Below, piece after piece: positions 5,525 to 31,408 of a stretch of 32,000 nucleotides of DNA. Numbering within the stretch: position 1 is the first letter of the stretch; each line of letters starts with the position of its first letter. The stretch lies in NCBI GenBank assembly GCA_039630085.1, contig JBCNVM010000010.1:17090-49089 (forward strand). The letters run 5' to 3'. The translations under genes and the position numbers were made by a program. This stretch comes from Candidatus Caldarchaeales archaeon (GTDB lineage: Archaea > Thermoproteota > Nitrososphaeria_A > Caldarchaeales > Calditenuaceae). Below the pieces are notes generated by a model that saw only the letters and a program-made list of their open reading frames with translations, was not told the DNA's origin and did not search any database.

Positions 5525-7052
5525 ACTTCCTCGGGACGACCTCGAGCTCGAGCCCGAGCTGCTGGCAGATCCTGTGGAGCCTCCTCTGGAGCTTCCTGAC
5601 GTAGACCTTCATGTACTCCGGCGGGACCTCGAGCCTGACGACTCCCCCGGCGACCCTCAGCTCGTAGCCGTCGATGTGCTTCCCGATCAGCCTGTTCAGG
5701 ACCGTCTGGACCCGCCCCTCCTCGTACGACGCGGCTTGGGACCTCCCCACGGGCACGATGAAGGTCCGCTCGCCGAAGACGTACATCTCGTACTCCACCT
5801 CGCCGGTCAGGAGGTCCTTCACCTCGATCGTGGGCCTCGCGAGGTCCGCCCTCTTCATCCCCCTCGGGACCCTCACGGAGACCTCGAGGACGTGGACCTT
5901 CGCGACCTCGCCGGAGTGCATGAAGATCACCGTGTCGATGATGGAGGGGACCACGCCTATGTCGACCCTGTTCGCGACCCTCTGGATCGCGTCGATCGGC
6001 GACGTCGCGTGGACAACCCCGACCATCCCTATCCCCGCGAGCCTGAGGTCGACGAAGAGCTGGAAGTCCTCCTCGTTCCGCATCTCGTCGAAGACGGTGT
6101 AGTCGGGCCTGCTGAGGAGGAGGACGTCGTGGAGCTCGCTCCCGGTCGAGGAGGACTTCGAGTACTGCGTCACGTCGGCCGGGAGGACAAGGTCCCTCGG
6201 GCTCTCGACCGTCTTCACGACCTTCCCCAGCGACCTGTAGTACTCCGCGATCGCCTGCGCAAAGGTGGACTTGCCCATGCCCGGCGCGCCGGCTATCAGG
6301 ATCCCTTCGGCCCTTGTGGTGAGCCTCTCCGTCAGGACAGGCGGGAGGTTGTACTCGTGGATCGACTTGCGGACCACCGGCCTGACGACCGTGACCTCGA
6401 GGCCGTCGCTGAGGGGAGGCCTGGTGATCACGACCCTGTACTCGCCGTACTGGAGGATGGTGACGTTCCTGCCGTCGACCTCGACGAAGGAGGTCCTGGA
6501 CTCGTCCTCGTGGACCCTCTGGAGGAGGTGGAGGACGAAGAGCTCGAGCCTCTTCCTGGTCACCGGCTCGGGCGAGAGCTCGACGAACCTCCACCTGCCC
6601 GGCGTCCCAGCCTTGACCCTCGGAGGGACGCCCTCCTTCAGGTGCAGCGACATCACGTTTCCCCTGAAGACCTCCTCGAGGGACCATTCGCTGCCGACGT
6701 CGACTCTGACCGTCCTGACCCCGAGCGCCTCGCAGAGCCTGTACGTCAAAGGGTCTGCCGTGACGACCACCGCGCCGTTCCTCGTCGCCTCCTCCCTGAT
6801 CACGTCCCTGACCTCGCCCGGAGCGTCCTCGCTCCCGATCAGCTCGATCGGGACACCCCTCCGCTCGCAGGCCTCCCTGAGGACCCTGAGGGAGTCGATC
6901 GCGCCCTCGTCGCCGCTCCTGAACCTCTCGCCGAGGGACTTGACGATCCTCCTGTGGAGCAGGATCGAACCCCTCAGCCTCCCCTCCTCGACCAAGGACG
7001 ACGCCAGCCCAGTGACGAGGGCCACGTCGTCGACGATGTAGCGCTCCTGCAC
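5523..7052 (-). CDS. PIN domain / PilT-PhoH-type P-loop ATPase / KH-domain protein (COG1855-like)
   Basis: Walker A GAPGMGKSTFAQAIAEYY, a Walker B-like YTVFDEMRNEED, a PIN-like N-terminus (RYIVDDVALV) and a C-terminal KH-like segment. Start set at GTG 7052 (VQERYIVDD). The 56 aa further upstream in the track ORF look non-coding and overlap a + strand zinc-ribbon ORF. Confidence 0.75.
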   Translation of the reverse strand: MQERYIVDDVALVTGLASSLVEEGRLRGSILLHRRIVKSLGERFRSGDEGAIDSLRVLREACERRGVPIELIGSEDAPGEVRDVIREEATRNGAVVVTADPLTYRLCEALGVRTVRVDVGSEWSLEEVFRGNVMSLHLKEGVPPRVKAGTPGRWRFVELSPEPVTRKRLELFVLHLLQRVHEDESRTSFVEVDGRNVTILQYGEYRVVITRPPLSDGLEVTVVRPVVRKSIHEYNLPPVLTERLTTRAEGILIAGAPGMGKSTFAQAIAEYYRSLGKVVKTVESPRDLVLPADVTQYSKSSSTGSELHDVLLLSRPDYTVFDEMRNEEDFQLFVDLRLAGIGMVGVVHATSPIDAIQRVANRVDIGVVPSIIDTVIFMHSGEVAKVHVLEVSVRVPRGMKRADLARPTIEVKDLLTGEVEYEMYVFGERTFIVPVGRSQAASYEEGRVQTVLNRLIGKHIDGYELRVAGGVVRLEVPPEYMKVYVRKLQRRLHRICQQLGLELEVVPRK

Positions 7053-20566: not shown

Positions 20567-21754
20567 GTGGTCGAGCTAGCGTCGATAGAGCCCGTCGTGA
20601 AGGGATGGGAGGAGGTCGCGCTGAGCTTCCCGGAGATCAGGAGGTACGGGAGGCACCTGATCATGCCGGAAGTCGGGATGAAGGGGCAGAGGAAACTGAA
20701 GGCCGCGAGGGTCCTTGTGGTGGGAGCCGGAGGGCTCGGGTCTCCGGTTGCGCTTTACCTCGCGGCCGCGGGCGTCGGGAGGGTCGGGATCGTGGACTTC
20801 GACGCGGTCGACGAGACCAACCTCCAGCGCCAGGTCCTCTTCACCACCGAGGAGGTCGGGAGGCCGAAGGTCGAGGCCGCCAGGGAGAGGCTGGAGAGGC
20901 TCAACCCGTACGTCGAGGTGGTCTCGTATAACTCGACGATCGACTCCTCGAACGCCCTCGAGATCATCAGGGACTACGACGTCGTGGTCGACGCCACCGA
21001 CAACTTCCCGACGAGGTACCTCCTGAACGACGCCTGCGTCTTCCTCGGGAAGCCGCTGGTCTACGGGAGCATCTTCAGGTTCGACGGCCAGGTCTCGGTC
21101 TTCTACGCGGGTAAGGGACCGTGCTACAGGTGCCTCTACCCGGAGCCCCCTCCGCCGGGCCTCGTCCCCTCCTGCGCCGAAGGCGGAGTCCTCGGGGTGC
21201 TTCCGGGGATCATAGGCTCCCTCCAGGCCAACGAGGCCATCAAGCTGATCCTCGGGGTCGGGAGGCCGCTGATAGGGAAGCTCCTGCTGGTAGACGCGCT
21301 CTCGATGACCTTCAGGGAGCTCTCCTTCCAGAGGGACAGGAACTGCCCGGTCTGCGGCGACAACCCGACCATAAGGGAGCTGATCGACTACGAGGCCTTC
21401 TGCGGCGTCAGGGTCACGGGCGAGGAGCTGGTCTCGGGCTTCAGCGTCACGCCGGAACAGCTGAAGGAGATGCTCGAGAGGGGCGAGAGGGTCGAGCTGA
21501 TCGACGTCAGGGAACCCGTGGAGTGGGAGATCTGCCACATCCCGGGCGCGAGGCTGATACCTCTGGGCCAGCTCACCTCGAGGCTCCACGAGATCGACCA
21601 GACCAAAAGGATCGTGGTCTACTGCCACACGGGCCAGAGGAGCGCGCTCGCGGTCAAGCTGCTCAGGGACATCGGGATAGCCCGGGCTTGCAACCTCGCC
21701 GGAGGGATAGACGCCTACGCCGAGAGGATAGACCCCGGCATGCCCAGATACTGA
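20567..21754 (+). CDS. moeB: MoeB/ThiF/UbaA-type E1-like adenylyltransferase with C-terminal rhodanese domain
   Basis: 395 aa. RYGRHLIMPEVGMKGQRKLKAARVLVVGAGGLGSPVALYLAAAGVG (nucleotide-binding fold), two CxxC pairs (CYRC, CPVC), and a C-terminal rhodanese domain with catalytic loop VVYCHTGQRSA. Confidence 0.9.
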   Translation: MVELASIEPVVKGWEEVALSFPEIRRYGRHLIMPEVGMKGQRKLKAARVLVVGAGGLGSPVALYLAAAGVGRVGIVDFDAVDETNLQRQVLFTTEEVGRPKVEAARERLERLNPYVEVVSYNSTIDSSNALEIIRDYDVVVDATDNFPTRYLLNDACVFLGKPLVYGSIFRFDGQVSVFYAGKGPCYRCLYPEPPPPGLVPSCAEGGVLGVLPGIIGSLQANEAIKLILGVGRPLIGKLLLVDALSMTFRELSFQRDRNCPVCGDNPTIRELIDYEAFCGVRVTGEELVSGFSVTPEQLKEMLERGERVELIDVREPVEWEICHIPGARLIPLGQLTSRLHEIDQTKRIVVYCHTGQRSALAVKLLRDIGIARACNLAGGIDAYAERIDPGMPRY

Positions 21755-21851
21755 GCGGATACGATATTCCCGGAGTCTGACCGGCGTATTCCGTGCGCTA
21801 CCTCTTGTACCCGCTACGTCCGCATTTCTAGTAACTCAATCGGGAAAAGAG

Positions 21852-21861
21852 ATAACTATAG
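21852..21861 (+). promoter_or_regulatory. TATA-like box for the surface-protein gene
   Basis: ATAACTATAG is centred about 26 nt upstream of ATG 21882. Confidence 0.45.
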
Positions 21862-21881
21862 GGGCTCCAAACCTCAACGAC

Positions 21882-23573
21882 ATGAAGGGAAGCCTAGTCC
21901 TCCTGCTGGGGACGATGCTGGCGTTGACGGCGCTCGGTGTAGCGCACGCTGAGGTCGTTACGTTCAGGCAGAGCTTCGGCGGATCTGATCCGGAGCTTTT
22001 AGGCGGCATAGCGGTCGACGGGACCTACCTGTACGCTGTGGGGTCGACGCAGAGCTTCGGCCCCAATGCATGGAACTTCTTCCTCTCCGTCTTCAAGCTC
22101 TCAGACAACACATATCATTGCAGTTCAGCGGTCGACATCCAAGGCAGTCCGAGGGACCTCGCGAAGAAGGTCGTCGTCCACGCAGGCCAGGTCTATGTCG
22201 TCGGACAGACGTTCCATGGCATTAACCAACCGAACATCTTCATAGCGAAGATGGACTCTAACTGCAATCTAGCCGGACTGAAGGTCTACGACTTGGGCAC
22301 AGGGGACAGTGTTGAAGGACTGGCGATAAGCGGAGAAGGTAGCTTCATCTACATAGCCGGCGCAACACAGAATGCTGCGCTGCTCATGGCCGTAAGGACG
22401 TCTGACCTCTCCGCGACATGGATCAGGGAGTTCAAGGTTGTCGGGGGAGGAGACTTCGCACAGTCCGTAGCCTTTGATGGAGGAAAGCTGTACGTGACCG
22501 GTCATACTTCTAACGGCGACCTCTTTGTGTCACGCTTCGACATCAACGGCAACCACGAGGCAACTAGGACGTTCGCGACGCCGGACTTCGAAGGGGGGAG
22601 GGACATCGTGATATCAGGAAACAAGATCTACGTCTCAGGGACATATGCGCCCCCCGCTGGAACGAGGATGCTAATCATGAGGCTTGATCCGGGGACCCTC
22701 AACGTCGAGTGGGCTAAAGTGATCGATATGTCGCCGGGCGCGGTAGACACACGATCCGTCTCCGTTGCGGGAGGTCTCGTGTACTCTTTTGGAACAACGA
22801 CACTCTTCGGCACAGATGACGCCCTGATGGTCGCGCTCAAGGCCACCAGCACCGGCGACCTCGCCTTCATGTTTGTTGTCGCGAGGGATGCGTCTATTCA
22901 GAGGGCAATCGATTCGGCACCTTTGGGATCCTGTGTCGTCTTCGGCGGCGACACCAATGGCTGGCCGATTTATTACGCCGTACCGGACTTCACCGTCGGA
23001 TCGATAAGCTTCAGCATTTCGTCCCCGACCCTGTCGATCGCGGCTCCGTCGCCGGGCGACATCGCAGCAACTCCGGCGCTGATGCCGTTCACGCCGACCC
23101 TCAACAACCCGGGGACCGTGGATGCCTTCTACTCGAGGTTCTGTCCGGACGCGCTGACCGTCTCAACCACCGTCACCGTCACTTCTACTTCATCCACGAC
23201 GACGACCCTCTCCACTACCACAACCTCGGTGGTGAAGACGACGACCACCGCCTACGACATCAGGTTGACCACCATCACTCAGACAGAGAGGACGACGCTT
23301 ACCGGGACCACCAGCGTCACGACCACCCTCACGGCCCTTACCACCACGACAAGAACGGAGTCGACGACCCTGACGCTTCAGACCACTCAAACTCTTCAGA
23401 CCACGCAGACTTTCCAGACCACTCAGACGTTTCAGACCACCCAGACCTTCACCACTACTCAGGTCTTCGCGGAGCCGATCACGACATACATCATACCCGC
23501 GCTCCTCGCGGTGATAGCTGCCCTCCTCGGCGCGGCGATCGTGGTGGGCAGGAGGAGACGGTACCCGTTCTGA
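21882..23573 (+). CDS. Secreted/surface protein: signal peptide, SBBP-type beta-propeller repeats, Thr-rich stalk, C-terminal TM anchor
   Basis: 563 aa. N-terminal signal-like MKGSLVLLLGTMLALTALGVAHA. At least six repeats of the type D/G-x-YV-x-G-x-T (LYAVGSTQSFG, VYVVGQTFHG, IYIAGATQN, LYVTGHTSNG, IYVSGTYAP, VYSFGTTTLFG). About 100 aa of T/S-rich sequence. A C-terminal hydrophobic helix plus GRRRRYPF. G+C is noticeably lower than in neighbouring genes. Confidence 0.8.
   Translation: MKGSLVLLLGTMLALTALGVAHAEVVTFRQSFGGSDPELLGGIAVDGTYLYAVGSTQSFGPNAWNFFLSVFKLSDNTYHCSSAVDIQGSPRDLAKKVVVHAGQVYVVGQTFHGINQPNIFIAKMDSNCNLAGLKVYDLGTGDSVEGLAISGEGSFIYIAGATQNAALLMAVRTSDLSATWIREFKVVGGGDFAQSVAFDGGKLYVTGHTSNGDLFVSRFDINGNHEATRTFATPDFEGGRDIVISGNKIYVSGTYAPPAGTRMLIMRLDPGTLNVEWAKVIDMSPGAVDTRSVSVAGGLVYSFGTTTLFGTDDALMVALKATSTGDLAFMFVVARDASIQRAIDSAPLGSCVVFGGDTNGWPIYYAVPDFTVGSISFSISSPTLSIAAPSPGDIAATPALMPFTPTLNNPGTVDAFYSRFCPDALTVSTTVTVTSTSSTTTTLSTTTTSVVKTTTTAYDIRLTTITQTERTTLTGTTSVTTTLTALTTTTRTESTTLTLQTTQTLQTTQTFQTTQTFQTTQTFTTTQVFAEPITTYIIPALLAVIAALLGAAIVVGRRRRYPF
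23376..23465 (+). repeat. Five tandem 18-nt units encoding (L/F)QTTQT inside the surface-protein gene
   Basis: Units: cttcagaccactcaaact / cttcagaccacgcagact / ttccagaccactcagacg / tttcagaccacccagacc / ttcaccactactcaggtc. Differences among the first four units are mostly at third codon positions. Confidence 0.85.
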
Positions 23574-23598
23574 GGCCTACCGCCTAGCCAAGATCTTT

Positions 23599-24282
23599 TC
23601 ACTCTATCAGCGGCAGCACCTCTCCGACCACGTAGTCGAGGAAGTCGGACTCGGAGATCCTGCTGAAGGCGGTCACGACGCAGTTCCTGGTGAGCCCGTA
23701 GATCCTCCCGCCCTCTTTCGTGGCGTAGACGATGTACCAGATCTTCCCGTGCCTGAGGGCCTCGTCGTACATCGAGGTGTCCATCAGCGATGGCCCCGCG
23801 AGGGCCAGCTTGTCGACCCCGGGGTAGTCCACCTGGTCGAACCAGATCAGCCTCGTCGACTCGGGGTTCCGGTTGTGGAGCTCCACCAGCCTCTCGTGGG
23901 GGATCCTCGCCTCGACGATCGACCTGAAGTCGAGGAAGAGGGCGTGACTCAGGGTGGTCGCGACGTAGTTGGCGAAGTGCTTCTCCTGCATCACCACGAG
24001 CAGCAGCTTATCCCCCCTGTCCCTGAACTCTATGTACGCGTCGACCGTCTTCACCACCGGGACCGCCTTCCCCCTCTGCCGGACCCTGATCAGTTTGTCC
24101 CTGCTGAAGACCCCCGAGACCCTGTCCCTCTCGCCCCTGACGTCGTGGACATCCGTCACCAGCTCGACCTCGGTGTCGTCCTCCTTCGCGACCTCGACGC
24201 TCCTGAAGTCCTTCAGCTTCTGGGCTATCGCGCCGAGGCTCGACTTGGCCCTGACGTCAAAAATCTTCGCGGTCAGCACCAT
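23599..24282 (-). CDS. Hypothetical protein (227 aa), no family recognised
   Basis: Clean 227-aa ORF with native codon usage and mixed alpha/beta-like composition. It is the last gene of a same-strand cluster with the carbamoyltransferase (47-nt gap). Confidence 0.65.
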   Translation of the reverse strand: MVLTAKIFDVRAKSSLGAIAQKLKDFRSVEVAKEDDTEVELVTDVHDVRGERDRVSGVFSRDKLIRVRQRGKAVPVVKTVDAYIEFRDRGDKLLLVVMQEKHFANYVATTLSHALFLDFRSIVEARIPHERLVELHNRNPESTRLIWFDQVDYPGVDKLALAGPSLMDTSMYDEALRHGKIWYIVYATKEGGRIYGLTRNCVVTAFSRISESDFLDYVVGEVLPLIE

Positions 24283-27002: not shown

Positions 27003-27091
27003 GGGCCTGAAGCTCTGCCAGGAAGAGCGCCCGGCCACATGGGGTGAGGCTCTTAACCGGGAGGTCCCGGGTTCAAATCCCGGCAGGCCCG
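27003..27091 (+). tRNA. tRNA-Lys: tRNA-Lys(CUU) with a 15-nt intron in the anticodon arm (non-canonical position)
   Basis: Hand-folded. Acceptor GGGCCTG/CAGGCCC, D arm GCTC-TGCCAGGAA-GAGC, anticodon stem CCCGG/CCGGG, variable AGGTC, T arm CCGGG-TTCAAAT-CCCGG, discriminator G, no encoded CCA. There are 22 nt between the anticodon stem halves. Removing CCACATGGGGTGAGG (27035-27049, or the equivalent 27036-27050) leaves the loop CTCTTAA, i.e. U33-CUU-A37. Confidence 0.8.
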
Positions 27092-27117
27092 CATTCCTGA
27101 CAATTCAAGATCAGGGA

Positions 27118-29121
27118 CTAGTAAACAATAATTATGGACAATCGGGAGTCGGAAAAATTCGAGGGGGGAGAGTCCGTCCTCTGAGTTCGTCTCGATTCCT
27201 CCGTTCTCATCACCTTATCCCTAAGCTTCGCAAGCTTGCGCGGTATCACGAAGCCGACTTTGGCCGCAAACGCCCGTAGCGAGGAGTATCGAATTCGAAT
27301 GCGGTAAAGGTCCTTCTTCGATATCGCTGGGTGGTCCGAGATCATCTTGACGTCGCCACCACGTCTGTGTAGATGTGGTCCAGTAGTTTCGATCTTTAAC
27401 GCACTTAGCTGCTCCTGCACGAATGTAAGGATCCGGACATCAGTGTTGTAGGCCTCTACTCCCACGCTAGAGGCGCACCCCTCCGCGTCGAAGAACCCGC
27501 GGAGGAATGCTGCCCGGCAGGCGTCGTTGAATTCAACGAATGGTCTGATTTTCTCGATCTGCCTTCTAGCTACCAGCTCGTAGAGAACTCTACTGCGCAC
27601 CTGTGCCCTATACATAACAGTTCCATTCCTCATGACCTTCTCAACTGCGGGCGCCGGTCGGCGCAAAACCATTTCTACACAGCGAGAGAATTCTTCAACA
27701 AATTCGCGATCCTTAGCGACAAGCACCAGAACGTACAGACCGTCCGCAGTCCTATACGTGTAGCCGTCGCCCATCATCACCCCGATGATATACGCGAGCT
27801 CCGGGGACGGCTCAAGTAGAACGATAGAGTCTTCTCTCCTCTCGCTTTCATTCTCCGTGTTTCTTTCAGGTTTCCTTCCAGGTTTTCTTAGACCTCTCGG
27901 CAAAGTTTCGCCCCGAAGCCATCTGTCGATAGTCGACGGGTGGAATCTCAGACCGTCCTTTGCGAGCTCCTTGGTGATCCGTCGATATCCGAGCCCCATC
28001 CGGTTGAGTTCACGCACTCGTTTCAGGATCTCATTCTGCCGCTCTGGTGTTTCTCCCAGCATATGTTTTAACCATTTTATTAAGCTGTTTTCATGGACAT
28101 GAATGCCCTCCCTTCGGAGTTCTGCGCGGATTCTATAGTACGGCAGCCCTTGCCGTCGTAGCTCAGCTGCACGATTCAGAACCCTTTCTCTGAGCTCTAT
28201 GCTGTCCTTGATGTGTTTCCACGTGTATATAGGAGGTTTAAAGACCATATCGCCGAGTATGTCGTAATCCCTGAACCAGCTCTCAAGTGTCCTTTCTGCT
28301 ATGTAGATCTTTTCCTCTTCTAACTTCCTCACGATCTCGCTCAGACTGAGTCCCTGTTGTCTGTACTCCAGTGCTTTTCTTAGGATAATGTCTTTGTATG
28401 TGCGCCACATCCAGACGTACCTGTAAATGATCTCTTTAGCCTCTCTAGGTTTCACGTGTTCCGCGTTAGTGTGCTCAGGTGTCGCACTCTCGGACGGTGT
28501 CGTCGCGACGATTTCTGCCATCTCAGCCTGATCAGGAGCAGAACTCTCGGGAGGTTCCTCGGCGATCTCGACGATTTCAGCATGTTCAGACGCTGTGATA
28601 TCGGGTGGCTTAGTGACGATTTTCGTAGTTTCGCCAGCAGCAGGAGTGACCACGATACTGCTTGTCGATCGGGCCCTTGGCACCGTGACAGGGGCGGGCA
28701 GATCTCTAGGCTTGTGGTGTCCCTTGATCCAGCCCCACAGTGTTCCCCGAGGCAGTTTTATGTTAAACTTTCTCCAAATTTCGGCGATAATTTGCCGATA
28801 CGTCGCCCCATCGTCACGTAGTCGTAGGACTTCATAATAGATCTGGCACCAGAGATCCGGAGATGAGCGTGGGAATCTCGCGCCAAAGTGCTTCCGTACC
28901 CAGTTATATATACTCGGATACGGCAGATCAATCCCCTCCTTCAAAAGTGTCCGACGAATTTCAGCAGGCCTGTGTCCAGCCGCTGCAAGAGTCAGGACTC
29001 GTTGTTTAAGGGTCGCAGGATATGGTATTCTTCTCCCCCCTTTCGTGGAATTTCGTCGGCTCTCGTCTACCGAAAAAGGAGACGAGACCGCTGAGTCTGG
29101 ACCCACCAAGCCGTCCGACAT
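27118..29121 (-). CDS. Multi-HTH (five tandem modules) / LAGLIDADG double-motif endonuclease fusion protein
   Basis: 667 aa. Five ~45-aa repeats of the pattern L..L...G.s..eI...L...GI.v...ti..W(l/v)(r/k), at about aa 36-79, 92-136, 243-285, 306-354 and 361-404. An acidic/Pro-rich repeat linker spans aa ~150-225. The C-terminal domain has LAYIIGVMMGDGY and AAFLRGFFDAEGC (LAGLIDADG motifs 1 and 2). GGAGGTGA lies 7 nt upstream of ATG 29121. Confidence 0.85.
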   Translation of the reverse strand: MSDGLVGPDSAVSSPFSVDESRRNSTKGGRRIPYPATLKQRVLTLAAAGHRPAEIRRTLLKEGIDLPYPSIYNWVRKHFGARFPRSSPDLWCQIYYEVLRLRDDGATYRQIIAEIWRKFNIKLPRGTLWGWIKGHHKPRDLPAPVTVPRARSTSSIVVTPAAGETTKIVTKPPDITASEHAEIVEIAEEPPESSAPDQAEMAEIVATTPSESATPEHTNAEHVKPREAKEIIYRYVWMWRTYKDIILRKALEYRQQGLSLSEIVRKLEEEKIYIAERTLESWFRDYDILGDMVFKPPIYTWKHIKDSIELRERVLNRAAELRRQGLPYYRIRAELRREGIHVHENSLIKWLKHMLGETPERQNEILKRVRELNRMGLGYRRITKELAKDGLRFHPSTIDRWLRGETLPRGLRKPGRKPERNTENESERREDSIVLLEPSPELAYIIGVMMGDGYTYRTADGLYVLVLVAKDREFVEEFSRCVEMVLRRPAPAVEKVMRNGTVMYRAQVRSRVLYELVARRQIEKIRPFVEFNDACRAAFLRGFFDAEGCASSVGVEAYNTDVRILTFVQEQLSALKIETTGPHLHRRGGDVKMISDHPAISKKDLYRIRIRYSSLRAFAAKVGFVIPRKLAKLRDKVMRTEESRRTQRTDSPPSNFSDSRLSIIIVY

Positions 29122-29220
29122 CTCCTTCTCACCTCCCGGGGGGCCCGAACCTCCCTTCCCCGAGCAGGAGGAAACCCTCCCGCTAGGAGAAGAGCAGGAG
29201 GGTCCCCCTCTCGGGGGTTA

Positions 29221-29277: not shown

Positions 29278-29451
29278 TCAGATGTTATCGAAGTGCCGGC
29301 GAAGACGCTTCTCGATCTCCTTGGCCCGCACCCAGACGGTCATCCCGACGGCGTCGGTCTCCTCGACCACCCTGAAGCAGGTGACCGGAAGACCGTAGAG
29401 AGCGCCTATCAGGTAGGCCGTCTGGGGCGGGCACTTCTCCCTAGGGTTCAT
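29278..29451 (-). CDS. Small hypothetical protein (57 aa)
   Basis: Hand translation: MNPREKCPPQTAYLIGALYGLPVTCFRVVEETDAVGMTVWVRAKEIEKRLRRHFDNI*. Its ATG lies 10 nt after the stop of the upstream membrane-protein gene and is preceded by GAGGAG. It competes with the + strand track ORF 29266..29469, which looks less protein-like. Confidence 0.45.
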   Translation of the reverse strand: MNPREKCPPQTAYLIGALYGLPVTCFRVVEETDAVGMTVWVRAKEIEKRLRRHFDNI

Positions 29452-29461
29452 GCTCCTCGGT

Positions 29462-29722
29462 TTAGATGAAGCTGATGATCAGCGGCAGCACTAGGTTGGC
29501 GAAGACCAGCGCTATTAGGCCCCCCGCCACCAGCCTCCAGCCAAGGAACTCCTGGCGGAAGCCGACGGCGATAAGGAGCCCCAGCGCGATCATCGCGACG
29601 CTCAGCACGTTGACGATCGGCACAGAAGCCTCTAAGATCGACAGTGTGATCTCCCTAACCATCTGCGAAATCTGCTGACCGACCTCTCGCGCAGTTATCA
29701 GAGCGATCAAATACGCGAACAT
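29462..29722 (-). CDS. Small membrane protein (86 aa, 2-3 TM), hypothetical
   Basis: From ATG 29722: MFAYLIALITAREVGQQISQMVREITLSILEASVPIVNVLSVAMIALGLLIAVGFRQEFLGWRLVAGGLIALVFANLVLPLIISFI. GGAGGTGA lies 7 nt upstream. The Arg/Gly-rich 32 aa upstream in the track ORF are unlikely to be coding. Confidence 0.6.
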   Translation of the reverse strand: MFAYLIALITAREVGQQISQMVREITLSILEASVPIVNVLSVAMIALGLLIAVGFRQEFLGWRLVAGGLIALVFANLVLPLIISFI

Positions 29723-29831
29723 GGCCCTCTCACCTCCACCCCTCGCGTCAACCCGTCCGAGCCGCCTCAGCGGGACTCCCGCCGTGGCTGGGCGGGGTTG
29801 CCCTCGGCGGCCCTTCATCCGGGTTTAAGCT

Positions 29832-29857
29832 CCGGGGCATGGGAAATGGTGCCCCGG
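29832..29857 (-). terminator. GC-rich hairpin downstream of the PriL-CTD-like gene, preceded by a T5 run on the minus strand
   Basis: CCGGGGCA-10 nt-TGCCCCGG, a perfect 8-bp stem. On the minus strand TTTTT (29874-29878) lies about 36 nt after the stop at 29915. The function (terminator or processing site) is unproven. Confidence 0.3.
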
Positions 29858-29914
29858 CCCCTGTTTAATGGGGAAAAATTTTGAGGGGTGGAGGTTCGGG
29901 GCCGTCAGGAAACG

Positions 29915-30370
29915 TCAGGATTTCCGCGATTCCTTCTCCTTCCTCGATGCGTACTGCATCGGGTTCTTTATGTTGACAGGACACAGCCTGCCGTTCTCGA
30001 CGCAGAGTCCGTGCGTTCTCATCGTCTGACACGAAGGCACGGTGTACTTCGTCCTCGATCCTCTGAGCCCTGCAATATGTTCTACCTGATACCTCGCGAC
30101 CCTCTCGTCGAAGTCCGGCCTCTGCGCGTAGAGTCCGATCACCTCGTCAACCGTGTGACCGGCGTTCAGCAGGTATGCCGCGACCCATCTGGTGTCCTCA
30201 GGAGCGCGTTCGTCTATCACGCGCTCGTATTTCCACCTGTAGAGCGTCTCGAGCTCTGGACGTTCTCGGCGGATGGCGTCCTCCAAAATCGGATAGGACC
30301 TCTTGACGACATCGACGACGTAGGCCAGGACTTCCGCGTCGGTCTCAGGTTCAAACTCAGGGGATCCCAC
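29915..30370 (-). CDS. Stand-alone DNA primase large subunit (PriL/p58) C-terminal Fe-S-domain-like protein
   Basis: 151 aa. AAYLLNAGHTVDEVIGLYAQRPDFDERVARYQVEHIAGLRGSRTKYTVPSCQTMRTHGLCVENGRLCPVNIKNPMQY closely resembles the conserved PriL-CTD block, for example human PRIM2 [21 protein letters not shown]...GCPFRH as I recall it. There is no PriL N-terminal domain. GTG start with GGTGA 6 nt upstream. Confidence 0.65.
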   Translation of the reverse strand: MGSPEFEPETDAEVLAYVVDVVKRSYPILEDAIRRERPELETLYRWKYERVIDERAPEDTRWVAAYLLNAGHTVDEVIGLYAQRPDFDERVARYQVEHIAGLRGSRTKYTVPSCQTMRTHGLCVENGRLCPVNIKNPMQYASRKEKESRKS

Positions 30371-30404
30371 ACCACATCACCACACCATAGTGAGTTATGG
30401 CCTA

Positions 30405-30414
30405 CTATAAAAAG
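30405..30414 (-). promoter_or_regulatory. TATA box (CTTTTTATAG on the minus strand) for the PriL-CTD-like operon
   Basis: Forward sequence is CTATAAAAAG. It lies about 40 nt upstream of GTG 30370 in a 98-nt AT-rich divergent spacer. Confidence 0.45.
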
Positions 30415-30438
30415 CTACGGCCACTTGTAGCTCAAATG

Positions 30439-30447
30439 TAATTATAT
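30439..30447 (+). promoter_or_regulatory. TATA box for the RHH gene pair
   Basis: TAATTATAT is centred about 26 nt upstream of ATG 30469, a leaderless-type spacing. Confidence 0.45.
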
Positions 30448-30468
30448 CACACATTCGGGGGTATTGTG

Positions 30469-30636
30469 ATGAGCGAGCAGAGGTTAAGAAAGACCACGAT
30501 CGAGATCTCCGTCAAGACCAAGGAGCGCCTCCTGCGGCTCAAAATTCATCCACGGGAGACATACGATGATGTCATAAATCGCTTGATTGAAGCCTTCGAA
30601 CGGAGTCGCAAATCTCCGCCGGCGAAATCAGCATGA
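30469..30636 (+). CDS. Ribbon-helix-helix / VapB-like antitoxin-type small protein (55 aa)
   Basis: Hand translation: MSEQRLRKTTIEISVKTKERLLRLKIHPRETYDDVINRLIEAFERSRKSPPAKSA*. The pattern (TI.IS..T.ERL..LK...ESY.DVI..LIE) is typical of small archaeal antitoxin-like proteins. Too short for the ORF track. Confidence 0.6.
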   Translation: MSEQRLRKTTIEISVKTKERLLRLKIHPRETYDDVINRLIEAFERSRKSPPAKSA

Positions 30637-30878
30637 AGGCGGAGGTATCACGTCTCCGCCGGCCTCCCGGGCGCGGTGTGCCGATCGCGAGCATAGGGAC
30701 CAAGACCATGCTGAGGAACGATCTTCGGAGCTGGGAAGAATATGAGAAGAGGGAAATGTCGGCTCATTTGCCACTCTCCGGGGCGCTTCGCGACTTCTTG
30801 GAAAACGCTGTCAGGTACGCAACAGGCTGGAGAAGATCGCTAGGAGGCATATCAGTCGGTGCGCTCTTAACAGCTTAA
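30633..30878 (+). CDS. Hypothetical protein (81 aa), possibly RHH-like
   Basis: Its ATG overlaps the upstream stop (ATGA). The segment TKTMLRNDLRSWEEYEKREMSAHLPLSGALRDFLENAV could form strand-helix-helix. It is not PIN-like. Confidence 0.4.
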   Translation: MKAEVSRLRRPPGRGVPIASIGTKTMLRNDLRSWEEYEKREMSAHLPLSGALRDFLENAVRYATGWRRSLGGISVGALLTA

Positions 30879-30901
30879 GAATGCAGAGGTTCATTCCGTT
30901 A

Positions 30902-31153
30902 CTATGTGGCCTGAGACCAGACGCGATCGAACTCCGGCCTATACTGTGAGGCTAGGCGCTCGCCGATGAGCACGATGTTCTCGTCGTTCCTGTCCTCCGC
31001 GGAGACCGAGAAATTATAGCTACCCGTTATAACCAGCCGGCCGTCTATGACAACGAACTTGTGGTGCATGAGGTCGGAGTCGCCGTCGAGAGCCTCGGCA
31101 TGAACGCGAATATCGGCCCCGGATGAAAAGCGTGTCGTCCCTCTGTATCGTCG
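30902..31153 (-). pseudogene. PLD/Nuc-family HKD nuclease, C-terminal remnant
   Basis: Hand translation directly after the CopG-like stop, same frame: RRYRGTTRFSSGADIRVHAEALDGDSDLMHHKFVVIDGRLVITGSYNFSVSAEDRNDENIVLIGERLASQYRPEFDRVWSQAT*. It contains the HxK(x4)D...GS.N motif and an NDEN block. The only ATG (31069) would give 55 aa starting at the catalytic His. The N-terminal half of the fold is missing. Confidence 0.6.
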
Positions 31154-31408
31154 TCACGGAATTGCCACTGCACGGATTTGAACTGAACGAAGCGGGGATC
31201 TCAGGTTACGTCGTCGGGGCATTCCATTCACGTTCTCGGGGGATATCCGTTCATTAAGCCCGAACATCGCCTCCGCCTTGATGAAGTCCCTGACAGCCAT
31301 CCTGATAGCCTCGGATCTGTTCATATAGCGTCCGGCCTCGACCAGAGAGTCGATCGCCTCGAGATATGCATCAGGCATGTGAACGGCAACCACCCGCACC
31401 GTTATCAC
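31154..31408 (-). CDS. CopG/NikR-type ribbon-helix-helix protein with a non-RHH tail
   Basis: 84 aa, GTG start. VRVVAVHMPDAYLEAIDSLVEAGRYMNRSEAIRMAVRDFI is a canonical RHH. The last ~38 aa are Arg-rich and run into the HKD remnant across a TGA. Confidence 0.75.
   Translation of the reverse strand: MITVRVVAVHMPDAYLEAIDSLVEAGRYMNRSEAIRMAVRDFIKAEAMFGLNERISPENVNGMPRRRNLRSPLRSVQIRAVAIP

Follow-up and report, generated by a model that had tools for sequence, protein, structure and literature searches.

Within a 32,000-nt stretch of DNA from a Candidatus Caldarchaeales archaeon (an order within the phylum Nitrososphaerota; contig JBCNVM010000010.1), hereafter the window, we describe an open reading frame (ORF) of 667 amino acids (27118..29121, minus strand, ATG start) that encodes five helix-turn-helix (HTH) modules joined to a single-chain double-LAGLIDADG domain. 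We consider it likely that this ORF represents a LAGLIDADG homing endonuclease gene, free-standing and apparently intact, and that it belongs to a large archaeal family whose niche is a convergent position at the 3' flank of tRNA genes. The window copy adjoins a tRNA-Lys(CUU) gene, and its foreign G+C content at third codon positions (GC3) marks it, on compositional grounds, as a recent lateral acquisition. Textbook accounts place LAGLIDADG homing endonucleases in introns and inteins, and these enzymes recognize DNA through their own beta-sheet saddle. Cleavage is a site-specific double-strand cut within a site of ~20 bp that leaves 4-nt 3' overhangs.

The C-terminal part of the protein (aa 436-650; 27172..27816, minus strand) is assigned to an I-DmoI-like double-LAGLIDADG domain by Pfam, AlphaFold and Foldseek. 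Pfam LAGLIDADG_3 matches with an E-value of 6e-13, and the best sequence match, I-DmoI, covers aa 442-592 (E 1e-5). An AlphaFold model of aa 300-650 built with 56 sequences has a predicted local distance difference test (pLDDT) score of 89.5, with ~96 in the nuclease domain, and the top Foldseek matches of this model are I-DmoI without exception (E 1e-9, template modelling score 0.70-0.74). Motif 1, LAYIIGVMMGDG, holds a GDG whose D452 (codon at 27766-27768, minus strand) aligns to I-DmoI D21, and motif 2, AFLRGFFDAEG, holds an AEG whose E547 (codon at 27481-27483, minus strand) aligns to I-DmoI E117. Family alignments of 36 and 56 sequences have the Asp of motif 1 without exception, and at motif 2 the acidic position is near-invariant, with Glu or, in a few members such as P0079 and P0142, Asp. 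The window protein shares with I-DmoI the same Asp/Glu ligand pair, and it also keeps the equivalent of I-DmoI K43 (its K470). The double domain and the two retained catalytic acids had both been proposed in the first-pass annotation, and both stand. Judged by its modelled fold and aligned metal ligands, the window protein is a LAGLIDADG homing endonuclease. It differs from I-DmoI in its setting and size: I-DmoI is encoded in the 23S rRNA intron of Desulfurococcus mobilis, is ~190 aa long and has no accessory domain, whereas the window protein is free-standing beside a tRNA gene and carries a 435-aa N-terminal extension with five HTH modules.

This extension consists of two HTH modules, a linker and three further modules, all read from the minus strand and with boundaries placed by a family-based hidden Markov model (HMM). 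Module 1 (aa 31-85; 28867..29031) is matched by the module HMM and predicted as a three-helix unit. Module 2 (aa 87-140; 28702..28863), again a module HMM match, is similar to the distal module of P0002, the closest homologue, and shares an LWGW motif with it. The linker (aa 141-237; 28411..28701) is acidic, rich in Pro, Ser and Thr, and predicted to be disordered (pLDDT <35); it contains a 63-nt (21-aa) tandem duplication, visible as DNA repeat D5 at 28503-28518 and 28566-28581. Module 3 (aa 238-285; 28267..28410) follows from the module HMM and pairwise alignments, and module 4 (aa 307-353; 28063..28203) from pairwise alignments, the family HMM and a pLDDT of 86-92 in the alignment-based AlphaFold model. 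Module 4 is probably a recent tandem duplicate, since module 5 is its closest relative (z = 15.6). Module 5, the LAGLIDADG-proximal one (aa 358-410; 27892..28050), is placed by family alignments and a pLDDT of 88-97, and is the counterpart of the sole module in single-module family members. Here W401 is invariant in alignments A1 and A2, P408 is near-invariant (invariant in A1), and G379 is invariant in A3.

Several lines of evidence agree with the first-pass claim of five HTH modules and a linker. Local alignments between module pairs reach z-scores of 4.2-15.6 against shuffled sequences in nine of the ten pairs (1.7 for modules 2 and 3), and >90 homologues match an HMM made from the five window modules in their own N-terminal module (E-values as low as 1e-14). 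The G...I...W skeleton is present in each of the five, and AlphaFold predicts a three-helix unit for every one, with pLDDT up to 97 in module 5. A single-sequence model of all 667 aa, with a pLDDT of 40.6, was used for secondary structure only. The likeness to resolvase HTHs suggested at first pass holds in kind, the modules being of the transposase/resolvase sort, but the Pfam and PDB matches behind this, though many, are all sub-threshold: HTH_32, HTH_33, HTH_23, HTH_7, HTH_SB, gamma-delta resolvase and the PAI of Sleeping Beauty, together with the Mutator transposase 6xg8 in the PDB (E 0.004). The Pfam 'Recombinase' match is confined to module 5 (aa 362-420), and NCBIfam models for the insertion sequence (IS) families IS481, IS3, IS66 and IS6 match HTH regions only, at 23-31 bits against cut-offs of 125-224. 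An attempt to name the HTH type by running the module profile against the PDB and Pfam was dropped, as all matches were sub-threshold; its top PDB matches, designed helical repeats, were discounted as compositional.

The window gene is apparently intact. Its frame of 667 codons is open, a strong Shine-Dalgarno-like ribosome-binding site, GGAGGTGA (29129..29136, minus strand), ends 7 nt 5' of the ATG, and of 37 family positions that are invariant or nearly so, the protein retains 36. Its N-terminal leader, MSDGLVGPDSAVSS, agrees with that of the homologue P0005, MSDGLVDPDLAVSS, which supports the assignment of the ATG start. The NCBI protein P0001 is 100% identical, is derived from a 49-kb contig of a metagenome-assembled genome (MAG) and is labelled 'LAGLIDADG family homing endonuclease [Candidatus Caldarchaeales archaeon]'. 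The source of the window is a GC-rich archaeon (~66% GC). GC3 is 0.56 in the endonuclease gene and 0.87-0.95 in host genes, so the foreign composition noted at first pass is borne out, as is the free-standing nature of the gene, which adjoins a tRNA gene outside any intron or intein. Moreover, the low GC3 is even across all domains of the ORF, and this uniformity points to a recent lateral arrival of the entire ORF, not to a local fusion.

The architecture does not stand alone. Of 1.84 billion representative proteins searched exhaustively with phmmer, 1,189 match at E ≤ 1e-3, and 311 of these reach E ≤ 1e-10; they are mostly from Nitrososphaerota, plus Thermococcus, Archaeoglobaceae and Geothermarchaeota. 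A word-indexed search with the full protein found only the protein itself, probably owing to low-complexity words; phmmer and a profile query recovered the relatives. A typical member has 240-450 aa, with one N-terminal module (consensus LP.ELR..LY.EV..LR..GLSY..I...I....G..LSKSTIS.W.RG.H.P) and then the double-LAGLIDADG domain. Among 306 family sequences, one module is found in 212, two in 23 and none in 69 (mostly fragments); one protein has three, and only the window protein has five, which makes its array, as counted by sequence, the unique extreme of this set. Database labels are generic ('intein-encoded endonuclease-like' or 'hypothetical'), and no curated Pfam or NCBIfam model spanning the HTH and LAGLIDADG parts was matched. 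The first-pass annotation had placed the architecture outside described families. The combination of HTH and double LAGLIDADG turns out to define a large, generically annotated and uncharacterised family, and what stays unique is the count of five. Other layouts also occur: P0011 (533 aa) has two complete LAGLIDADG units in tandem with an HTH between them, and P0055, P0028 and P0144 have HTH modules C-terminal of the nuclease (in P0055, one N-terminal and two C-terminal).

At the genomic level, tblastn confirmed 253 relatives, and 80 of their loci were examined. These come mostly from Caldarchaeales/Aigarchaeota, Nitrososphaerales and Nitrosopumilales, with single loci from Archaeoglobaceae, Thermococcus and Geothermarchaeota. 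Carriers outside chromosomes are nearly lacking: the family is essentially absent from viruses in IMG/VR (one weak partial match) and has no match among plasmids in PLSDB. Many genomes hold several copies, at least nine in one MAG, and these often lie at contig ends; a practical consequence is that the family's multiple copies break metagenome-assembled contigs at tRNA genes.

The convergence with a tRNA gene, treated as a side feature in the first-pass annotation, is the hallmark of the family. Some homologues end in antisense-tRNA-like peptides (e.g. '...GAGGIRTHD' in P0008), and for this reason the genomic loci of relatives were examined. In a census with intron-aware ARAGORN and Rfam, restricted to the 70 loci whose downstream sequence reaches 250 nt or more, 48 have a convergent tRNA gene immediately 3' of the endonuclease gene. 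The gap to the tRNA, measured from the alignment end, has a median of 87 nt (interquartile range 75-107), and the tRNAs have at least 14 different anticodon identities. Chance alone, estimated from how densely other tRNAs occur in these loci, would account for 0.5 loci (binomial P ~1e-85). The cultured Thermococcus radiotolerans, whose genome is complete, has the endonuclease stop at 6828 and tRNA-Met at 6860-6934, and the closest homologue of the window protein (P0002) is likewise adjoined by a convergent tRNA. Whether homologues sit beside tRNA genes had been a question of the first-pass annotation, and these counts answer it in the affirmative.

A few observations on these loci stand apart. 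Introns occur in many tRNAs beside family members elsewhere, and several anticodon calls are implausible. One member (L011, 4850-7158) lies 3.7 kb upstream of a 23S rRNA gene with no adjoining tRNA, and its 92%-identical paralogue in L028 has no tRNA either. In the Nitrososphaerales MAG KUA_Bin06 (L026, L027, L031, L042, L055 and L062), recently expanded copies are 80-90% identical and mostly lack a detectable tRNA, and several have an extra upstream repeated segment of >100 nt in common; this cluster may be a sublineage whose target differs or whose unit is larger. The two 'tRNA-Val' genes in tandem in L012 were considered as a target duplication and rejected: a run of N precedes the second, which is an artefact of scaffolding, and the L012 tRNA also differs from that of the window.

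In the window, the neighbour is a tRNA gene at 27003..27091 (plus strand; Rfam tRNA, 47.6 bits), convergent with the ORF. It contains a 15-nt intron (~27035-27049) at a non-canonical position, after ~nt 32/33. Intron-aware ARAGORN gives Lys(CUU), and the same identity is obtained after removal of the intron. The Val(CAC) call of default ARAGORN, with C at position 33, was rejected in favour of Lys(CUU) once the intron was considered, in line with the tRNA-Lys named at first pass. The junction between the discriminator base (27091) and the stop codon (27118) is 26 nt long (27092..27117). In relatives, 0-18 nt separate the tRNA 3' end from the boundary of the element.

Close relatives indicate what moves. 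Paralogues within one genome share 80-92% DNA identity over 0.85-1.05 kb only, i.e. the gene itself. Their similarity ends on the 3' side at the first base of the tRNA, even where the tRNAs differ (Pro, Ser, Thr and others), and on the 5' side ~25-130 nt upstream of the conserved coding region. The tRNAs concerned are Pro, Ser and another in SKYB24, and Thr, Ser and Pro in PSS.bin.6. From these limits of similarity, the mobile unit in the relatives is the gene alone. No tRNA-derived direct repeats flank the gene in 37 related loci, and neither terminal inverted repeats nor target-site duplications were found in the window or in these loci.

Decay after fixation is part of the usual life cycle of homing endonuclease genes. 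In L030, an intact copy and a decayed one occur at neighbouring tRNAs, the latter (1881-2279) a degenerate 3' fragment convergent with tRNA-Gly(UCC) and 85% identical to the 3' end of the L024 member. In L051, L064, L070, L072, L073, L076 and L078, frames break early relative to the tblastn match (ORFs of 33-310 aa), which suggests frameshifted or decaying copies. Contigs of near-identical Thermococcales strains (L114, L115 and L116) encode an identical S15 protein and have flanks that are 98.5-99.8% identical. Between tRNA-Met and the S15 gene, L114 carries the endonuclease gene, while L115 and L116 carry an unrelated ORF of 176 aa in which a lamin-tail (LTD) domain is present; on the left, the breakpoint is 18 nt past tRNA-Met. 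On sequence grounds, the empty allele (L116, 2230-2330) is a candidate natural cleavage substrate. In a neighbour-joining tree, one tRNA-Met clade spans Thermococcus, Archaeoglobaceae and Geothermarchaeota, and this crossing of phyla points to lateral transfer with the target kept. The same tree contains single-genome clusters at different tRNAs, which point to target switching. For the family as a whole, these traits are typical of a selfish homing endonuclease gene, here with an unusual and sharply defined niche.

We propose the following mechanism. The I-DmoI-like core would bind ~20 bp across the junction between the tRNA 3' end and the downstream sequence in gene-less alleles, and cut there. 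Recombinational repair from an occupied allele would then copy the gene (~1-2 kb) into the break, and because this insertion would interrupt the recognition site, the carrier allele would be immune. The N-terminal HTH modules would act as additional DNA anchors, most plausibly on the adjoining, highly conserved tRNA gene. Such anchoring may raise affinity, make the enzyme tolerant of drift in the variable flank and permit occasional jumps to other tRNA genes. The five-module array of the window protein would give longer or multiple DNA contacts. Across clades, the recognition-helix region of the proximal HTH has an entropy of 1.8 bits, versus 2.4-2.6 for the beta-hairpins of the N-terminal LAGLIDADG subdomain; the greater conservation of the HTH region fits a shared HTH target combined with variable cleavage sites. 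The analysis shows the fold, the catalytic residues, the module repeats, the tRNA adjacency across the family, the mobile unit in relatives, one presence/absence polymorphism and the foreign composition. From there we infer cleavage activity, target site and homing pathway of the window protein and, more weakly, DNA binding by the HTHs and their docking on tRNA genes.

A number of points weigh against this account. At the active site, I-DmoI Q42, K120 and K130 are replaced by A469, A550 and T560 in the window protein, and the family consensus lacks them too. Peripheral basic and polar active-site positions vary among active LAGLIDADG enzymes; from the sequence, cleavage could be slow or nicking-limited, with kinetics or a strand preference that differ from those of I-DmoI. 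The HTH modules match known HTH families in Pfam and the PDB only below curated thresholds. Of the loci in the census, 22 of 70 lack a convergent tRNA, including the multi-copy cluster of one Nitrososphaerales genome. Paralogues that are 80% identical lie at tRNAs with different acceptor stems, a pattern that a LAGLIDADG site of strict sequence specificity does not easily accommodate. What separates the Thermococcus alleles is a replacement (L114 1979-2907, 929 nt, versus L116 2286-2907, 622 nt) and not a clean insertion. No right half-site of the target was recovered by the gene's 5' end in the occupied allele, where the alignment scores within the shuffle range, and general recombination could be the source of this polymorphism. 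No empty allele of the window's tRNA-Lys locus was found: none of the 80 family loci holds an orthologous junction, and of the 29 loci (≤70% identity) found when metagenomes were scanned for the neighbouring HMGL-like protein, none is syntenic and none has tRNA-Lys or the OTCase gene. The mobility of the window copy is therefore read from its relatives. Finally, the support for every family member is computational.

Four other explanations have to be weighed, and the first concerns the DNA next to the gene. The endonuclease could be cargo, or a maintenance or integration module, of a ~4.4-kb low-GC island (27.1-31.5 kb) that was inserted at tRNA-Lys by a recombinase since lost; we think this unlikely. 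tRNA genes are classic integration sites, the ORFs at 27.1-31.4 kb are all atypical (GC3 0.56-0.77), and the island holds plasmid- or virus-like genes (the PriL-like, CopG-type, VapB-like and PLD ORFs below). Apart from the endonuclease gene, the island (29278..31408) has ORFs with a GC3 of 0.61-0.77 at 29.4-31.4 kb. It holds a small membrane ORF and a stand-alone 151-aa ORF (29915-30370, minus strand; GC3 0.72) that corresponds to the C-terminal (Fe-S) part only of the archaeal/eukaryotic primase large subunit PriL (PF04104, E 3.5e-15) and may be a mobile-element primase accessory. A DUF7557/VapB-like ORF (30466-30636, plus strand; E 5e-11) and a CopG-type ribbon-helix-helix ORF (31154-31408, minus strand; E 2.5e-8) are also present, with no cognate toxin seen for either. 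A 55-aa ORF (30902-31069, minus strand) covers the C-terminal third of a PLD/HKD protein (PLDc_2 positions 81-132 of 132, E 1e-13) and is a truncated gene remnant.

Against such an element, no recombinase catalytic domain, integrase or split-integrase fragment was found among the island ORFs, and the window contains no att-type direct repeat of the tRNA 3' end. With no tRNA-derived repeat in the 37 related loci either, an integrase-mediated tRNA element was rejected. The copies in relatives have only the endonuclease gene in common, directly abutting the tRNA, and the endonuclease gene (GC3 0.56) lies below the rest of the island genes in GC3, a difference suggestive of independent origins. 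As the gene moves alone in relatives, the rest of the island is probably outside the endonuclease element and, with modest confidence, we read it as separate accessory debris at a tRNA hotspot. The first-pass description of the ORF as the first gene of a low-GC island is thus right in composition, but the position is probably coincidental. Elsewhere in the window, a second low-GC patch (21500-23600; GC 0.57-0.59) holds a 563-aa ORF (21882-23573, plus strand; GC3 0.74) with no Pfam match. A 227-aa ORF (23599-24282, minus strand) has no Pfam match either; a 52%-identical homologue of it lies ~2 kb from the family member in L002.

Second, the HTH-LAGLIDADG protein might work as a site-specific 'transposase' that moves a ~1-kb unit between the tRNA genes of one genome, in the manner of an IS element, an idea to which we give a low probability. 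It would account for the close within-genome paralogues at different tRNAs in SKYB24 and PSS.bin.6 and for the fairly discrete 5' and 3' ends of their similarity, and the modules do resemble the N-terminal HTHs of transposases. The terminal inverted repeats and target-site duplications looked for in the window and related loci are absent, though, and LAGLIDADG enzymes hydrolyse DNA; to our knowledge, they do not catalyse strand transfer. Ectopic homing, with the shared tRNA 3' sequence as one homology arm, would give the same pattern, and we think the idea better taken as a behavioural variant of homing. A DDE transposase or insertion sequence proper was rejected: in addition to the lack of inverted repeats and target duplications, the NCBIfam scores are far below their cut-offs and concern the HTHs only.

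Third, the protein might be a domesticated DNA-binding protein (a regulator, a tRNA-gene factor or a replication factor) whose LAGLIDADG domain no longer cuts. There is a precedent in WhiA/DUF199, a bacterial transcription factor and the only well-studied natural fusion between a single-chain LAGLIDADG domain and an HTH domain (PMC3384342). In addition, the peripheral catalytic residues depart from those of I-DmoI at several positions, an array of five HTHs is more what one expects of a regulator, and some clades retain the gene at one tRNA (e.g. tRNA-Cys in Nitrososphaerales). However, WhiA has a single C-terminal HTH, has lost the catalytic acids and is a conserved single-copy host gene. In the window protein and its family the HTHs are N-terminal (five of them in the window protein), the metal-binding Asp and Glu are conserved family-wide, and the genes are multi-copy (at least nine per genome), patchy, often at contig ends, partly decayed and mobile-like. 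Near-identical strains differ in presence or absence of the gene, the window copy has a foreign composition, and LAGLIDADG_WhiA is absent from the window protein's Pfam matches. As its acids are kept, its HTHs are N-terminal and its gene behaves as mobile DNA, the window protein is not WhiA-like. The regulator or replication initiator offered as an alternative at first pass is accordingly disfavoured, and we regard domestication as quite improbable.

Last, a decaying, inactive copy whose extra modules and repeat linker are neutral duplications after fixation would suit the recent 21-aa linker duplication, the recently duplicated look of modules 4 and 5 and the usual post-fixation decay, but it is very improbable given 667 uninterrupted codons, a strong ribosome-binding site, 36 of 37 conserved positions and an intact G...I...W skeleton in all five modules.

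The reading that we prefer, a homing endonuclease gene resident at tRNA 3' flanks, has partial parallels among known systems. In yeast, HO depends on an added set of DNA-binding modules, which are C-terminal zinc fingers. HO is itself a free-standing LAGLIDADG endonuclease (PMC3384342). It differs in being intein-derived, eukaryotic and domesticated for mating-type switching, and in having zinc fingers, not HTHs. I-TevI-type enzymes combine a nuclease domain, a linker and separate DNA-binding modules that include an HTH. As for tRNA genes, segB of phage T4 lies within a tRNA gene cluster, and SegB is reported to be needed if the T4 tRNA gene region is to be inherited preferentially in mixed infections (PMC2330249). 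SegB, the other Seg/Mob enzymes and I-TevI have GIY-YIG or HNH catalytic domains and are phage-borne, whereas the window family is LAGLIDADG, chromosomal, archaeal and nearly absent from viral and plasmid collections.

The closest likeness in layout is an engineered one. In a megaTAL, an N-terminal repeat array, a linker and a single-chain LAGLIDADG cleavage head are joined (PMC3936731), the same modular layout as in the window protein. The differences are that megaTALs are engineered and use transcription activator-like effector (TALE) repeats, each of which reads one base, while the window protein is natural, its modules are predicted tri-helical HTHs and their role in DNA addressing is putative. 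By this analogy, a megaTAL-like extended footprint of the window protein is plausible. The full-text literature that we searched contains no account of this family or of HTH-LAGLIDADG genes beside tRNA genes in archaea, a negative limited to that literature. The tRNA-flank niche of the family is apparently unreported, and it is a weightier result than the five-module array.

A bolder reading, which we offer tentatively as a possibility that has yet to become a probable one, is that the family forms an unrecognised class of archaeal selfish genes: solo LAGLIDADG genes that would home to the exact 3' boundary of tRNA genes, with a conserved N-terminal HTH docking on the T-arm/acceptor part, which all tRNA genes have in common, and the nuclease head cutting the variable flank. 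The window protein would then be a natural, thermostable megaTAL-like nuclease with a greatly extended or multi-site footprint. Such two-part addressing would explain hops between tRNA genes within a genome and between phyla. For applications, the family may offer thermostable single-chain meganucleases with natural addressing modules, and the five-module protein is the extreme case.

On the reading that we prefer, archaeal chromosomes would harbour a large free-standing lineage of LAGLIDADG homing endonucleases with a niche at tRNA 3' flanks, built-in HTH modules and evidence of target switching within genomes. The long-standing question of how homing endonucleases gain new targets without dying out would become directly testable. 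Beside integrases and retroelements, such genes would give mobile DNA a third way of exploiting tRNA genes.

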